Source of the DNA: Escherichia phage vB_EcoM_ACG-C40
Direction: 5' to 3' (one strand)
Length of the DNA stretch: 64,000 nucleotides
Sequence record: NC_019399.1
Shown: piece after piece, positions 42,091 to 63,884 of the stretch
How the letters are laid out: every line of letters begins with the position of its first letter
Numbering within the stretch: position 1 is the first letter of the stretch
Translations under genes and position numbers: made by a program
Notes under the pieces: generated by a model
The model's database searches: none
Told to the model about the DNA's origin: nothing
Seen by the model: the letters and a program-made list of their open reading frames with translations, nothing else

Positions 42091-42561
42091 TTAATCATGT
42101 TTCCACACCCCATCGGTATTTGACCAAAGCCGCTGATTATCTGATCCTCGCCACAGCTTTTTGGTCGGAAGATTTTTCTCATACTTCCCATCAATAATAA
42201 CATCAACATATTTAAGCATTTCTAGTTGTTTAATATCTTCAAACTTATATCCTGTCCACAACCAAATGCTTTTATTGGGATAAAGATTTTTTACTGTTTG
42301 AACAATGCAATGAATAACATCTCGGTTATCAGGATAGAGAGGGTCTCCTCCAGTTATAGTTAATCCTTCTATATAATCATTATTCAAACATTCAATCAAT
42401 TGTTCTAGTGTTTCACCAGTGAATGGAATACCATTTCTAGCATTCCATGTTGATTTATTATAACACCCTTCACATTTATGCAAACAACCTGTAACGAAAA
42501 GAACTGTCCTGCATCCAGGACCATTAACAAAGCAGCACGGGTATATTCTGTCATAATTCAT
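42091..42561 (-). CDS. nrdG: anaerobic ribonucleotide reductase activase NrdG (156 aa)
   Basis: Radical-SAM cysteine motif CxxxCxxC; ATG 42561 (track start 42582 is TTG). Confidence 0.88.
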   Translation of the reverse strand: MNYDRIYPCCFVNGPGCRTVLFVTGCLHKCEGCYNKSTWNARNGIPFTGETLEQLIECLNNDYIEGLTITGGDPLYPDNRDVIHCIVQTVKNLYPNKSIWLWTGYKFEDIKQLEMLKYVDVIIDGKYEKNLPTKKLWRGSDNQRLWSNTDGVWKHD

Positions 42562-43388
42562 AATAATATCCAATTTTTCCAAGCTTCATCAGTAGAATTA
42601 CAGCGTTTTAGTATAAGATGTCTAGAAACTTTTATGGCATTTGAGCACTTTTTAATTGAATCATATTTAATACCGTCAACTGAAACGGTTTTGCTAGTTG
42701 GAGAAATTTTTCCATACATTGGATTTTTTGAACCAACTTGAAGTCCTTTTAAAGCTTTTGAAAGCTTTTGTCTAGATTCCAATGACATGGGAGAATTCTT
42801 TTTACCTTCAATAATTCGCTTGCGATGAAGTTCGCGTTCTTCTTCACTCAAAGAATTGTAATATTTTTTAACACCGTTTGATATAGATAATTTATCTTTC
42901 TCAGACCGCTCTCCAGCTAATTTACTTCTAACATCTTTTCGCTTCATAGCTATGCTTACGGCTTTATTTAAATTTGCTTGATGCTCTGGCGTACGTTTAT
43001 ATTTCTTTAAAGCACGTGAAATAGCTATTTTAGTTTCTTCTGTTCTCTTTTTACCTTTATTTGCTAAACTATTTTTGCGGCGATGTTCAAGTGTCTGTTC
43101 ATAGGCAGTTCCACCTTTTCCACCAGGTTTAATATTATATGTATTTTCTTTTAGACAATACTCTTCGGTTACAAGTTCAGCTTCTTTATCATACATCTGT
43201 TTTTCATTATCAAAAACATGTAAAATTTCTTTATTAAAATTTTTTCTACCATATTTTAATAAAGCGGCACGAATCAATGTTCCTGACCCCATATAACCGT
43301 CATTTATGTTATCGGTGCTATGCGCACCGATATATTCCTTTGAATTAATTATATTTGTTATTTTATAAATTATATAATACCTATGCAT
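42558..43388 (-). CDS. GIY-YIG homing endonuclease (276 aa) between nrdG and nrdD
   Basis: YIIYKITNIINSKEYIGAHS GIY-YIG motif plus NUMOD-like repeats; ATGA overlap with nrdG. Confidence 0.75.
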   Translation of the reverse strand: MHRYYIIYKITNIINSKEYIGAHSTDNINDGYMGSGTLIRAALLKYGRKNFNKEILHVFDNEKQMYDKEAELVTEEYCLKENTYNIKPGGKGGTAYEQTLEHRRKNSLANKGKKRTEETKIAISRALKKYKRTPEHQANLNKAVSIAMKRKDVRSKLAGERSEKDKLSISNGVKKYYNSLSEEERELHRKRIIEGKKNSPMSLESRQKLSKALKGLQVGSKNPMYGKISPTSKTVSVDGIKYDSIKKCSNAIKVSRHLILKRCNSTDEAWKNWILL

Positions 43389-45198
43389 GTTTTACTCGTT
43401 TTACCATTTCTTTCATTTTACCTAAATTCCATGGAACAACGCTAGGAGTTCCAAGATATCCGCATGTTCTTCTTATTGTATTCATCTTTTTAGGATCAGT
43501 TTCTCCACAAATAGAACAAATAAATCCGTTTTCAGTAGGAGTCATTTCATGGGTGCTTCCGCATGTAAAACATTTATCTACTGGCATATTAACACCAAAA
43601 TAATCTAAATGTTGTGCAGCATAATCCCATACGGCCTCAAGACCCTTTAAGTTATTTTTCATATCAGGAAGTTCAACATAAGAAATGTGACCACCTGTCG
43701 CAATGAAATGATATGGTGCTTCTCGAGAAATCTTTTCAAACGGAGTAATATTTTCTTCTACTGAAACATGGAAACTGTTAGTGTACCAGCCTTTATCAGT
43801 AACATCTTTTACACTTCCATATTTTTCAGTATCAAGTTTACAGAAGCGATAACAAAGGTTTTCAGCGGGAGTAGAATACAAGCTAAAAGCAAAACCGGTT
43901 CTTTCAGTCCACTGTTTAAGACGAGCATTCATTTTAGTTAAAATTTCCTGTCCAATATCACGACCGACAAGAATATTCAATTCGTGAATACCAATGTATC
44001 CTAGGGACACTGAACTTCTACCGTTTTTAAATAACTCAATTATATCGTCATCAGGTTTAAGACGAACCCCGAATGCACCTTCTTGGTAAAGAATAGGAGC
44101 AACAGTAGCTTTAACTCCTTTTAAGGAACTAATTCTACACATCAAAGCTTCAAAACACAAATCCATACGTTCATTGAATAATTCAACAAATTTCTGTTCG
44201 TTAAATTGTGTTCCAATATAAGAATCTAATGCAATACGAGGAAGATTCAGTGTTACAACACCAAGATTATTACGTCCATCAAGAATTTCATTACCAGTCG
44301 AATCTTTCCATACGCTCAAGAAACTACGGCAACCCATTGGAGAAACAGGAACAGATGAACCAGTGATAGCTTTATTGTTCTTAGCTGAAATAATATCAGG
44401 ATACATCCTTTTGCTTGCACACTCTAGAGCAAGCTGCTTAATATCATAGTTCGGATCGTCTTTGTAAAGATTAACACCTTCTTCAACGAACATAACAAGC
44501 TTAGGGAAAATAGGAGTTATCCCATCACGACCGAGACCTTTAATACGATTTTTCAGAATTGCTTTCTGAATCATTCGTTCAGTCCAGTCAGTTCCTGTAC
44601 CAAATGTAATTGTTACAAAAGGCGTTTGTCCGTTTGAACTAAAGAGAGTATTTACTTCATATTCATAAGCTTGGAATGCATCGTATACATCTTTTTCTGT
44701 TTTAGATTGAGCATAATTCAACGCATCAGCGATTTGCCATTTTTCTGCATCCTCAATATGTTTTGCATAGGTGCGTTTAACATAAGGAGAAAGTACTTTA
44801 TCTACATTCGCAAAAGTCGTTCCGCCGTATTGGTGGGAAGCAACTTGCGCAGTAATTTGTGCCATAATTGCAGTAGCAACACCGATTGATTTAGGAGTTT
44901 CAATCTGTGCATTACCGAGCTTAAATCCGTTCTCAAGCATTCCTTTTAAATCTACTAAACAACAATTAGTAAATGGAAGAGCAGGGGAATAATCAATATC
45001 GTGGAAATGGATAATTCCGCTTTCATGCGCTTTCATAATAAAAGACGGGACCATATTTTTGGCAATGTGTTTAGACACAATACCAGCCATAAGGTCCCGT
45101 TGAGTTGGAAAAACACGAGAATCTTTATTAGCATTCTCGTTTAAAAGGTCTTTATTAGTTTTATGAATCAATCCTTCAATTTCTTTTTCAATTGTCAT
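43381..45198 (-). CDS. nrdD: anaerobic ribonucleoside-triphosphate reductase NrdD (605 aa, uninterrupted)
   Basis: Glycyl-radical C-terminus RRTCGYLG; single ORF, no intron. Confidence 0.93.
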   Translation of the reverse strand: MTIEKEIEGLIHKTNKDLLNENANKDSRVFPTQRDLMAGIVSKHIAKNMVPSFIMKAHESGIIHFHDIDYSPALPFTNCCLVDLKGMLENGFKLGNAQIETPKSIGVATAIMAQITAQVASHQYGGTTFANVDKVLSPYVKRTYAKHIEDAEKWQIADALNYAQSKTEKDVYDAFQAYEYEVNTLFSSNGQTPFVTITFGTGTDWTERMIQKAILKNRIKGLGRDGITPIFPKLVMFVEEGVNLYKDDPNYDIKQLALECASKRMYPDIISAKNNKAITGSSVPVSPMGCRSFLSVWKDSTGNEILDGRNNLGVVTLNLPRIALDSYIGTQFNEQKFVELFNERMDLCFEALMCRISSLKGVKATVAPILYQEGAFGVRLKPDDDIIELFKNGRSSVSLGYIGIHELNILVGRDIGQEILTKMNARLKQWTERTGFAFSLYSTPAENLCYRFCKLDTEKYGSVKDVTDKGWYTNSFHVSVEENITPFEKISREAPYHFIATGGHISYVELPDMKNNLKGLEAVWDYAAQHLDYFGVNMPVDKCFTCGSTHEMTPTENGFICSICGETDPKKMNTIRRTCGYLGTPSVVPWNLGKMKEMVKRVKHA

Positions 45199-49877: not shown

Positions 49878-50192
49878 CTAAAAGAAACTTCTTTCACAAT
49901 TTTTTCCACTGAACCAAGCGCTCACTGCTTTCTTAGTCTCAGGAGCAGTGTTATCCATAAACCATTCAAAGGCAGCCTTTTTATGATTCTGGAGGGCTTC
50001 TCGGGCTTTAATCTGCTCACGGTCTATTAACACTAACATATGAGCCTTTCTTGTCACCATGGGCTTCTTATGATTTTTTGAATATTCCCAATCATTTGTC
50101 CATCGCATCGTTGTTGCGAATTGAAGTACAGCTTCTTTAATCTTAGTTTCGTAAATTTCACGAGCCTTTGAGTATAACATCATTACCTCCAT
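49878..50192 (-). CDS. hypothetical protein (104 aa)
   Basis: ATG start. Confidence 0.5.
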   Translation of the reverse strand: MEVMMLYSKAREIYETKIKEAVLQFATTMRWTNDWEYSKNHKKPMVTRKAHMLVLIDREQIKAREALQNHKKAAFEWFMDNTAPETKKAVSAWFSGKNCERSFF

Positions 50193-60118: not shown

Positions 60119-60580
60119 TCATTGAGTTTTAATTACTGCTTTAGAAGCCTTTCCTGGTAAACGACGACTGTTGATAATTGCCATCCTGCATTGAAGTGAC
60201 GGGTTTTTGAACTTCTCATTAGGCTTACAAACCGTAAATCCAAGCCAAAGATTTCCATCTGTGATTTCTAAACGTCCAGGACGATATTCAACCCCATCAA
60301 TAAAATCCTCGTCAATGTCAGGACGCGGAGGCATACTCAGGAATTCATTAACTTCTAAAACATGGTCTTTTATTTTATGGAATAATTCAAAAACATATGT
60401 CTCATCAATCTCCCGTTGAATTGCACGATCAAGAAGATGCTGAGAATATTTTAGATGAAACGATGAGACCCCTGCTGCTTTTGATGCCTCACGAATCTCA
60501 TTGTTAATTTGACGAAACTCCGACTCAAAGTGACGACGAAGCTTATTTCTACGGATAAAAACTTCTGTATTGATAGTCAT
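60119..60580 (-). CDS. regB: endoribonuclease RegB (153 aa)
   Basis: Length and sequence match T4 RegB as recalled. Confidence 0.85.
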   Translation of the reverse strand: MTINTEVFIRRNKLRRHFESEFRQINNEIREASKAAGVSSFHLKYSQHLLDRAIQREIDETYVFELFHKIKDHVLEVNEFLSMPPRPDIDEDFIDGVEYRPGRLEITDGNLWLGFTVCKPNEKFKNPSLQCRMAIINSRRLPGKASKAVIKTQ

Positions 60581-60639: not shown

Positions 60640-60918
60640 TTATTCTTTAAATCTAATCAATTTATTCATAGACTTTGTAACTTCTGCACGAACCTCATGT
60701 AAGTTTTTAAGCTGTTCAAGACGTTGCTCATAGTAAGCAATTTCATCTTCTTCGAGGCAGTCCTGTGAATCTTCTTTAAGATAACGTGCATAGTCCTGGA
60801 AAGCTTTACGGACTACTTCCTGGAAGTCATCAAGACTTTGAATTTTCTTAGGAGCAACAGATACACGACGAGGGGCAGTATAATACTCATAACCAAACCC
60901 TGCGCTTAATTGAGCCAT
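60640..60918 (-). CDS. hypothetical protein (92 aa)
   Basis: ATG 60918 after GAGGAAAA (track start 60960 is GTG). Confidence 0.45.
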
Positions 60919-61184
60919 TAGTATTTTTCCTCTGGTTGGAACACTGCGCGACAAGCCCACATACTGGCTTCTTTGAGTTTCATTTTAGCAATAGTTAACT
61001 GATCGAGGCTTTCGGCGTAATTCTTCGCGAGTTCATCATCTTCACAGCTATCAAATGCTTCCCAGAATTCATCATATAAAGCATCAAAGATAAGCCCTAA
61101 ACGAACTTCAGCATCTTTGATAGCATTCACTTTACTGATTTTATCGTCAGTATGTGGTTTATAACCTTTAATGTCTTCAATCAT
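60918..61184 (-). CDS. hypothetical protein (88 aa)
   Basis: ATG start. Confidence 0.5.
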
Positions 61185-61398
61185 ATTTTACTTCCTCACC
61201 TGTTCCCAAATCATATTCAACTAAACGAATAGGTTCATGAATGCCATATCCTTGAACAGAAATTTCTGTCGTAGGATAAATTCCATTAATATCACCCATG
61301 TTCCATGCTTCGTTAAATTGCTGTTCGCCTGAATTACTAAACCACTCGGCGAAAGCATTTAGCACATCTTCAGAACCTTCAATAATTATCTTTGCCAT
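61177..61398 (-). CDS. hypothetical protein (73 aa)
   Basis: ATG start. Confidence 0.5.
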   Translation of the reverse strand: MAKIIIEGSEDVLNAFAEWFSNSGEQQFNEAWNMGDINGIYPTTEISVQGYGIHEPIRLVEYDLGTGEEVKYD

Positions 61399-61760
61399 TA
61401 CAAACTCTCGGTGAAGGTACGAGCGATAACGTCGCGCTGCTGTTCCGGAGTCAGAGAGTTAAAGCGAACTGCATAACCGGATACACGGATGGTCAGCTGC
61501 GGATATTTTTCCGGATGCTTAACTGCATCTTCCAGAGTTTCACGACGCAGAACGTTAACGTTCAGGTGTTGACCACCTTCAATTTTAACTGTAGGCTGTT
61601 GCTCAATTTCAATTTCACGGGCATGCAAACCATAGAAAATTTCTGGGTCTACAAAAGAGTCCTCTTTAAAGGTTTTAGAGACAATAATTCGTGCTTGAAT
61701 ACCATCTTCAAAATAAATAGTACCTTTATGTGTGCCTTCAAGAATTTGATATGCTTTCAT
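61398..61760 (-). CDS. autonomous glycyl-radical cofactor, GrcA/YfiD-like (120 aa)
   Basis: C-terminal [29 protein letters not shown] glycyl-radical motif; GC-rich, host-like composition. Confidence 0.85.
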
Positions 61761-61766
61761 ATAACC

Positions 61767-62147
61767 TCAATTAGAAAATAAATTTATCCAAGATTGTTCT
61801 TTAATTAAAAATGGCTCAGAATCATATGCCATTAAACTCTGTGTGATTAGTCCTTTAAAAGGCCCATCAATAAATTCCATGGTAAAATATGGAATTTTAT
61901 TCATTAGCCGTGCATTAGGAGCCGTGCACAAAACTCTGCATCCTTTGAATACGCCTTTTTGTAATTTGTATTGCTTGGGATAAAATTCGCTCAAAATGTT
62001 ATTATTTGCTAAAATTTCAAAATGATTCACCAATTTATTTTTAATAGTTTTTGGTGAAAAATAAAGATATTCGAAAAGCTGAGTGTCTGTCATCATTGCA
62101 TTCCAATCACAAAAAATTGAGGACGAGTAATACCACCAATACAGCAT
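61767..62147 (-). CDS. hypothetical protein (126 aa)
   Basis: ATG start. Confidence 0.45.
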   Translation of the reverse strand: MLYWWYYSSSIFCDWNAMMTDTQLFEYLYFSPKTIKNKLVNHFEILANNNILSEFYPKQYKLQKGVFKGCRVLCTAPNARLMNKIPYFTMEFIDGPFKGLITQSLMAYDSEPFLIKEQSWINLFSN

Positions 62148-62683
62148 TTACTATTGCAGCAATATTGCACAGTTTCAATATGGACACTATAAATCTTATC
62201 CATATCAGGAGATTTAACAGGCTCATCGATTATATACAAAATTCGAGAAAGCGATAAACCTCTGAACTTGCTACCTCTATTACCAACAAAACTACGGACA
62301 GAATCAGTAAATAAACGGAATCGAATATCATCGCTAGAATAACGAGAAAATTCTTTTTTAATGCGGCCCACAGAAATTTTAGCGTAAGCTGAAGTATTAG
62401 AAAGAACAATAACTGTTCCACCATCATACAACCAATTAGCGGCAAAATTAGTTACTGCAGTTGATTTACCGGATTGTCTGCCACCATCTAAACGAAGTGT
62501 ACAATATTCTTTAAATAAATACGACGAATCAGGTACATAAAATCCACTATTACAAATTTCTTCTACTCTAGCGTCAGAATGGTGTGTAAAAGCATTCATC
62601 AGGGATAGATAAGGACCAGTTAAAAATGTTCTCATTTTATTCTCTCTAAATTTGGGCCATTCCATGGCGCATGAATTGTCCAT
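62093..62683 (-). CDS. P-loop NTPase-like protein (196 aa)
   Basis: Walker A GGRQSGKST; start uncertain (ATG 62683 or 62635); overlaps previous ORF. Confidence 0.45.
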   Translation of the reverse strand: MDNSCAMEWPKFRENKMRTFLTGPYLSLMNAFTHHSDARVEEICNSGFYVPDSSYLFKEYCTLRLDGGRQSGKSTAVTNFAANWLYDGGTVIVLSNTSAYAKISVGRIKKEFSRYSSDDIRFRLFTDSVRSFVGNRGSKFRGLSLSRILYIIDEPVKSPDMDKIYSVHIETVQYCCNSKCCIGGITRPQFFVIGMQ

Positions 62684-62776
62684 TTCTGTATTTACCCATT
62701 ACCGCACTTGGGCTCGACCTTATTACAGGTTGGCGGGAATCCCTCACAGAATCATGAGGTCCAGCTTGTTCCCATA

Positions 62777-63250
62777 TTATTTGAACGATTTAACGTACTG
62801 AATAGAACCTTTACTATTTACAAAGGCAATTTTACCATTTTTATTATACATGGTAGCAGTACGCTGATAGCCATAAGTTTGCTTACCAGATTGATAACCA
62901 ACTAATGCAAAATTATCTTCACCCATTTTATTCTGTTTAGCGCGAATGCGTTCATGACCATGTGCCATAAGAACCTTAGCATCACCAGTTACAATGGATC
63001 GACGAGTTTTTTCATCTTCAACTGTATTAACAAAGTCGTCAAATGAATCAAATTTAGCATGAGATTTATTATACAGTTTTCCATCTACTGCATAATTATA
63101 TCCCTGTACATCCATCTCAACTTCTGTACCATCATCCAATACAGCAGTAATTTTCTGTCCTTTTTTAAATTTCAAAAGATCAGTAAAAGATTCAGCAATA
63201 ATTTGAGAATTAATAGCTGCTTCAGTGATAAATTCTTGATATGTTTTCAT
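62777..63250 (-). CDS. internal protein family member with capsid-targeting sequence (157 aa)
   Basis: N-terminus MKTYQEFITEA matches the T4 internal-protein targeting sequence as recalled. Confidence 0.65.
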   Translation of the reverse strand: MKTYQEFITEAAINSQIIAESFTDLLKFKKGQKITAVLDDGTEVEMDVQGYNYAVDGKLYNKSHAKFDSFDDFVNTVEDEKTRRSIVTGDAKVLMAHGHERIRAKQNKMGEDNFALVGYQSGKQTYGYQRTATMYNKNGKIAFVNSKGSIQYVKSFK

Positions 63251-63304
63251 ATGTTTCCTTTAAATATTTTAATTAGTAATTTGTCTCTTCAAGCAACTGT
63301 GAAT

Positions 63305-63334
63305 ATACTATCACAATTCTAGGAGAAAGTAAAC
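63305..63334 (-). promoter_or_regulatory. probable early promoter
   Basis: GTTTAC present; -10 region TAGTAT is a poorer match. Confidence 0.4.
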
Positions 63335-63338
63335 AACT

Positions 63339-63884
<546 letters not shown>

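Follow-up and report, generated by a model that had tools for sequence, protein, structure and literature searches.

The window analysed here, a 64,000-nucleotide stretch of the genome of Escherichia phage vB_EcoM_ACG-C40 (NC_019399.1), belongs to a T-even (Tequatrovirus) phage and carries on its minus strand the vs.6 (Y06I) coding sequence (61398..61760). The reading frame runs from ATG to TAA and encodes a 120-residue product of 13.7 kDa, an autonomous glycyl-radical cofactor of the GrcA type. At the sequence level and at the ORF junctions, the GAGG Shine–Dalgarno sequence of vs.6 (61765..61768, minus strand) overlaps the TGA stop codon of vs.7, and the vs.6 stop codon overlaps the start codon and ribosome-binding region of vs.5 (TAATG). 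These overlaps at both ends place vs.6 within a tightly packed vs.8-vs.7-vs.6-vs.5-vs.4 cluster, in which all genes are co-oriented. A scan for promoters and terminators around vs.6 gave nothing above shuffle expectation and no distinctive promoter directly upstream of the gene. The ORFs that flank vs.6 are small, unrelated phage ORFs, and the surrounding region comprises regB (60119-60580, Pfam REGB_T4), the Acb2/Tad1-type vs.4, vs.5, vs.7, vs.8, an internal-protein gene and the e lysozyme gene. This gene order is the same as in T4 and RB69, where the corresponding ORF is vs.6 and is annotated in RefSeq as "autonomous glycyl radical cofactor GrcA".

Two further features of this neighbourhood were observed. 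The vs.4 ORF (60918-61184, minus strand), located two genes downstream of vs.6, matches the Pfam Acb2/Tad1 hairpin domain (E=3e-18), a family of anti-CBASS/Thoeris cyclic-nucleotide sponges. Additionally, unlike in T4 and RB69, denV is absent from the interval (62683-63339) between vs.8 (62093-62683) and e (63339-63833), which instead holds a single internal-protein-like gene (62777-63250, DUF7412) whose product starts with MKTYQEFITEA.

The vs.6 protein of the window is identical to T4 vs.6 (Y06I; NP_049730) at 118 of 120 residues, and at the DNA level identity is 100% with phages Pinarejo and REP3 and 99.2% with T2. The gene is present in 1,505 phage records. Searches with the protein gave a match to Pfam Gly_radical (PF01228, E=2.5e-18) and a full-length match to phrog_1209 (T4 vs.6-like, E=5.7e-63), in which residues 1-120 align with profile positions 1-121. 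Among PDB entries, the best match is E. coli GrcA (6OWR, E=9e-42), followed by pyruvate formate-lyase (PFL; E=5e-26), and the vs.6 domain shares 49 of 63 residues (78%) with PflB 697-759. Specifically, residues 61-120 of vs.6 are identical to residues 68-127 of E. coli GrcA at all 60 positions, including the glycyl-radical motif RVSGYAVRF, so that the near-identity to GrcA proposed by a sequence-only reading of this DNA is borne out. By comparison with GrcA and PflB, the motif spans residues 92-100 (61461..61487, minus strand), and the codon of the radical glycine, Gly95 (61476-61478, minus strand), is equivalent to Gly102 of GrcA and Gly734 of PflB. The NCBIfam equivalog model for GrcA (TIGR04365) scores vs.6 at 154.9 bits over profile positions 25-126, under its curated cutoff of 170, whereas E. 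coli GrcA scores 233.9; the lower score of vs.6 is due to its divergent, phage-type N-terminal half. Taken together, the identity to a solved and characterised protein settles the family and fold of vs.6. In structural terms, the protein is an autonomous glycyl-radical cofactor, best filed in the vs.6/Y06I phage branch of the GrcA proteins. Neither the gene nor its family nor its in vitro function is thus new.

Comparison with the two closest characterised proteins clarifies what is particular to this copy. T4 Y06I occupies the same locus (the interval between vs.7 and vs.5), has the same length and is the same kind of mosaic with E. coli grcA; it differs by two substitutions (Q54P and R73H in T4), and its host-identical run reaches 9 nt further 3'. 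E. coli GrcA (YfiD) is likewise a small stand-alone protein, and the C-terminal 60 residues that it shares identically with vs.6, radical glycine included, account for practically all of the structured domain that takes the place of PFL 693-759. However, the N-terminal half of vs.6 is 7 residues shorter than that of GrcA, is only about 35% identical to it and is of phage lineage. Host grcA has its own promoter, whereas vs.6 is expressed from a gene cluster of the phage early region.

Biochemical work from Knappe's group showed that T4 Y06I and E. coli YfiD restore oxygen-cleaved PFL, with the radical supplied by the PFL-activating enzyme (Wagner et al. 2001, pmid 11444864, as related in PMC8683613), and Y06I counts as one of two biochemically validated PFL spare-part proteins. 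In GrcA, a disordered stretch (residues 1-60) precedes a domain (residues 61-127) that is folded like PFL 693-759; the disordered half aids binding and radical installation, and the C-terminal domain stands in for the PFL residues that are lost or displaced after cleavage at Gly734 (PMC8683613). The window protein has the C-terminal domain of GrcA unchanged and departs from Y06I at two residues overall, and it is therefore expected to work in the same way. In this mechanism, oxygen would cleave active host PflB at Gly734, the small vs.6 protein would bind the damaged enzyme, the host PFL-activating enzyme would put a radical on Gly95 of vs.6, and the resulting PflB-vs.6 complex would regain PFL activity. 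The infected cell may thereby keep its supply of acetyl-CoA, hence ATP, and of formate in the microaerobic or fluctuating-oxygen gut.

Class III ribonucleotide reductases use formate as their reductant. It may accordingly serve the phage's own anaerobic ribonucleotide reductase, NrdD/NrdG, both genes of which lie in the window (nrdD at 43381-45198).

The sequence-only reading had proposed that vs.6 could repair oxygen-damaged NrdD or host PFL. The PFL part of this proposal stands on the biochemistry reported for the T4 ortholog Y06I. The NrdD part does not: in BLASTP, the vs.6 protein and the NrdD of the window align with E=2.3 and away from the radical site, and with no significant similarity to NrdD, repair of NrdD as the primary role was rejected. 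The idea that vs.6 mainly replaces the oxygen-cleaved radical tail of the phage's own NrdD, rather than serving host PFL, draws on the facts that NrdD is also a glycyl-radical enzyme cleaved by oxygen, that the phage encodes both nrdD and nrdG, that an Aeromonas phage copy adjoins nrdG, and that a role in nucleotide metabolism was suggested by Nolan et al. 2006. We nevertheless consider it very unlikely, since the domain shares 100% of its residues with GrcA and 78% with the C-terminus of PflB, experimental support is limited to rescue of PFL, and conversion by host grcA preserves the fit of the domain to the PFL system.

Two observations touch on the anaerobic ribonucleotide reductase genes themselves. 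In Aeromonas phage ZPAH1, nrdG and a thioredoxin gene directly flank a grcA-like gene (L092, 226-612) whose product is extended by 9 residues at its C-terminus, and this arrangement constitutes a genomic link to anaerobic ribonucleotide reductase. In the window, a 276-residue ORF (42558-43388, minus strand) with NUMOD3 and I-TevI DNA-binding motifs lies between nrdD and nrdG (42091-42582) and resembles a free-standing homing endonuclease.

At the nucleotide level, the domain that would carry out PFL rescue contains a patch of host DNA. Alignment with E. coli grcA reveals a 169-nt exact match (61414..61582, minus strand), the longest between the two genes, in which nt 179-347 of vs.6 correspond to nt 200-368 of grcA (codons 60-115). 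The patch encodes nearly all of the structured glycyl-radical domain, and its boundaries fall where the structured and the disordered domain meet. Its dS relative to E. coli grcA is 0, and with a GC content of 0.497 and a GC3 of 0.44 its composition is the same as that of the corresponding E. coli grcA block. In BLAST searches, nt 179-363 of vs.6 match grcA at 97.3% identity in each of the 5,426 E. coli genomes, and when the whole 64 kb is compared by megablast with these genomes, the patch is the sole match, accompanied by an 80% echo on pflB. The patch is also the most GC-rich 169-nt stretch of the window, its GC content being reached in 0.036% of the 169-nt windows across the 64 kb. The remark that vs.6 is visibly more GC-rich than its neighbours is confirmed by the gene as a whole, which at 0.416 (window mean about 0.342) has the highest GC content of the 68 ORFs and the second-highest GC3, yet the excess is confined to the 3' patch. 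The highest GC3 (0.39) belongs to a 104-residue DUF7203 ORF (49878-50192, minus strand), which has no E. coli megablast match.

The remainder of the gene is of a different descent. The 5' part (gene nt 1-178, residues 1-59; 61583..61760, minus strand) has a phage-typical GC content of 0.337 and GC3 of 0.20, so that the host-like composition noted for the gene holds in the patch and fails upstream of it. These 178 nt have no BLASTN match in any of the 5,426 E. coli genomes, and the N-terminal 60 residues show distant homology to the N-terminal half of GrcA (BLASTP E=5e-6, 35% over 40 residues). The start MKAYQ is found in copies from Tequatrovirus, Mosigvirus, Jiaodavirus, Pseudotevenvirus (RB43, Miller) and T5-like phages; other starts are MKAYM in the Aeromonas phage copy, MNAYQ in the Karamvirus type and MITGIQITKAAND in host GrcA. 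The N-terminal half of vs.6 is fast-evolving and specific to phages. On the other side of the patch, the 3' tail (last five codons and stop; 61398..61413, minus strand) encodes the same amino acids as E. coli with five synonymous differences, and its signature GAG-AGT-(T/C)T(G/A) (GAG AGT CTA/TTG) is common to RB69, Mosigvirus, Slopekvirus and Roth41.

The phage-wide N-terminus, the full-length phrog_1209 match and the 3'-tail signature together point to a long-resident phage gene whose interior was replaced by host DNA. The sequence-only reading had instead taken the whole gene to be acquired from the host. What remains of that proposal is the patch; the gene around it is phage-lineage. The 97.3% DNA identity and host-like GC of the 3' half are what recent capture of the whole gene from E. 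coli would predict, but the same event would not leave a 5' part with phage GC and GC3, without an E. coli nucleotide match and with about 35% amino acid identity to GrcA. Nor does it account for an MKAYQ N-terminus common to T4-like, T5-like and Aeromonas phages or for the phage-lineage synonymous signature in the 3' tail. With both the 5' half and the 3' tail of phage lineage, whole-gene capture was rejected and retains hardly any probability. Thus, vs.6 is an old phage gene with a host-derived interior patch and not a recent whole-gene capture. The combined explanation, in which vs.6 is a PFL spare part encoded by an old phage gene whose structured domain has been overwritten by host grcA, is in our judgement highly probable.

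To place the patch among its relatives, the 177-nt conserved-domain region was compared among 19 copies from phages and 82 grcA genes from bacteria. A scan of genome contigs gave 80 enterobacterial grcA loci, K. pneumoniae not among them; its grcA was taken from a chromosome filed as a plasmid in PLSDB, and the K. aerogenes gene (LR134122.1) was left out owing to a frameshift. In the two PLSDB records concerned, CP125156.1 and LR134122.1, what is filed as a plasmid is Klebsiella chromosomal DNA, whole or in part (5.37 Mb and 568 kb). Identity of the T-even copies is 94-98% to E. coli grcA and about 86% to that of K. pneumoniae, which places them nearer to E. coli than the closest other bacterium is (Citrobacter, 92.7%). 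In the Klebsiella Jiaodaviruses, the block has a GC content of 0.57-0.58, carries the Klebsiella-type residues LLDAVEH and has 92% identity to K. pneumoniae grcA, or 94.8% when the tail is left out, versus 84% to E. coli. At 92-95%, this best match points to a Klebsiella-type donor of the Jiaodavirus block and not to one exact allele.

A quartet of the window phage, Jiaodavirus 5N, E. coli and K. pneumoniae separates the two parts of the gene. In the 5' part, site patterns favour the split between phages and hosts at 60:2:2, whereas in the block they run 1:17:0, each phage being paired with its own host (Fisher p=3e-14 versus the 5' part). The copies of Slopekvirus, Pseudotevenvirus, Karamvirus, Krischvirus, T5-like and Aeromonas phages reach at most 85% identity with any of the sampled host genes, and the GC contents of their blocks are 0.36-0.50, under that of the Jiaodavirus block; these copies look like unconverted or long-decayed alleles. 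The patch is of Escherichia type in Tequatrovirus and Mosigvirus and of Klebsiella type in Jiaodavirus. It is possible, although in our judgement somewhat short of probable, that the structured domain is repeatedly overwritten by the grcA of whichever host is current.

Several individual copies in this set are unusual. Tequatroviruses named for other hosts, "Hafnia" phage IsaacDaniel and "Yersinia" phages PST and fPS-2, carry the E. coli-type patch at 99-100% identity to E. coli grcA, which suggests that their recent natural host was Escherichia. The RB49 (Krischvirus) copy (L091, 170-583) has a longer N-terminal half and PflB-like residues, REMLLDA, in place of the GrcA-like ones, a pattern that hints at exchange with pflB or a different origin. 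Slopekvirus CPRSA, a Klebsiella phage, has a copy (L086, 335-583) without the phage-type N-terminal start; its annotated CDS of 61 residues covers the radical domain alone and is possibly truncated or split. In Escherichia phage vB_Eco_Some (L102, 323-763), a 79-nt tandem duplication inside the host-identical vs.6 block frameshifts the final residues and represents either a real disruption or an assembly artefact.

Within the T-evens, the gene conversion by which the domain was overwritten from the grcA of the current host probably occurred more than once. Between the window and RB69, the 5' half has a dS of 0.41 and the block one of 0.02 (p=4.6e-4). For RB69 and EP32a, two nearly identical Mosigviruses, the order is reversed, with 0.03 for the 5' half and 0.22 for the block (p=0.03). 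No better donor for the divergent EP32a block was found among the 5,426 E. coli genomes, where the top match is 95.9%, and several of the EP32a differences are states found in unconverted phage lineages. Additionally, the 3' end of the host-identical run differs among T4, the window phage and IsaacDaniel. The simplest reading of this pattern, which draws on few synonymous sites and seven phage sequences, is that several conversion events with different end points occurred among the T-evens, and phage-to-phage recombination could be part of its source.

A single acquisition of the host block by the ancestor of Tequatrovirus and Mosigvirus, followed by slow evolution without repeated conversion, would account for the left boundary and E. 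coli-type block shared by all sampled T-even copies, and it is favoured by the strong purifying selection on the amino acid sequence. We regard it as improbable, because slow evolution leaves unexplained why the block differs so little between the window and RB69 when the adjacent 5' half differs so much, why RB69 and EP32a show the reverse, and why the window block matches a living E. coli allele without a single difference while dS exceeds 1 in other phages that encode the same protein sequence. The latter point rests on RB43 and Roth41, whose blocks have 97-100% amino acid identity but 80-83% nucleotide identity; that they keep nearly the same domain at dS above 1 relative to the window shows that its synonymous sites are free to change. 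The same comparison bears on whether the nucleotide identity could have arisen by selection or convergence, as the extreme conservation of the domain at the protein level might suggest: in RB43 and Roth41 nearly the same amino acids are kept without the DNA being held alike. Transfer from phage to host meets a different obstacle, since the E. coli block is nested in enterobacterial grcA diversity (92.7% identical to Citrobacter, dS 0.40), has host GC content and is continuous with a host-type 5' half. Selection, convergence or phage-to-host transfer as the source of the identity is therefore extremely improbable, and we favour conversion of the phage gene by host grcA.

Exchange of this kind has a parallel in cyanophages, where psbA reportedly undergoes intragenic recombination between host and phage. 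In both systems, a phage auxiliary metabolic gene swaps internal segments with its host homolog, which leaves patches of host-like composition and conflicting phylogenies. Unlike psbA, vs.6 is a 363-nt gene of enterobacterial T-even phages, and 169 nt of it form the patch, with patch boundaries at the structured/disordered domain border. The searchable literature holds no description of a mosaic or of conversion in vs.6, and older T4 papers outside it may mention the DNA identity; nor was a paper on the importance of vs.6 for phage growth found in it. The host-tracking patch is thus a modest nuance, possibly unreported.

As a textbook-level phage auxiliary metabolic gene, vs.6 itself adds nothing new; one candidate benefit in vivo is that anaerobic dNTP synthesis, and phage growth in the gut, are kept supplied with formate and ATP. 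The patch, on the other hand, a sharply bounded conversion tract, is a clean enterobacterial counterpart to the cyanophage-host exchange of psbA, and it shows that hydroxymethylcytosine-containing T-even phages, which degrade host DNA, do nonetheless recombine with the host chromosome at homology. If host tracking is true, conversion would keep the phage copy matched to host PFL and its activating enzyme, PFL-AE, and the patch would be a molecular record of the recent natural host of a T-even phage.
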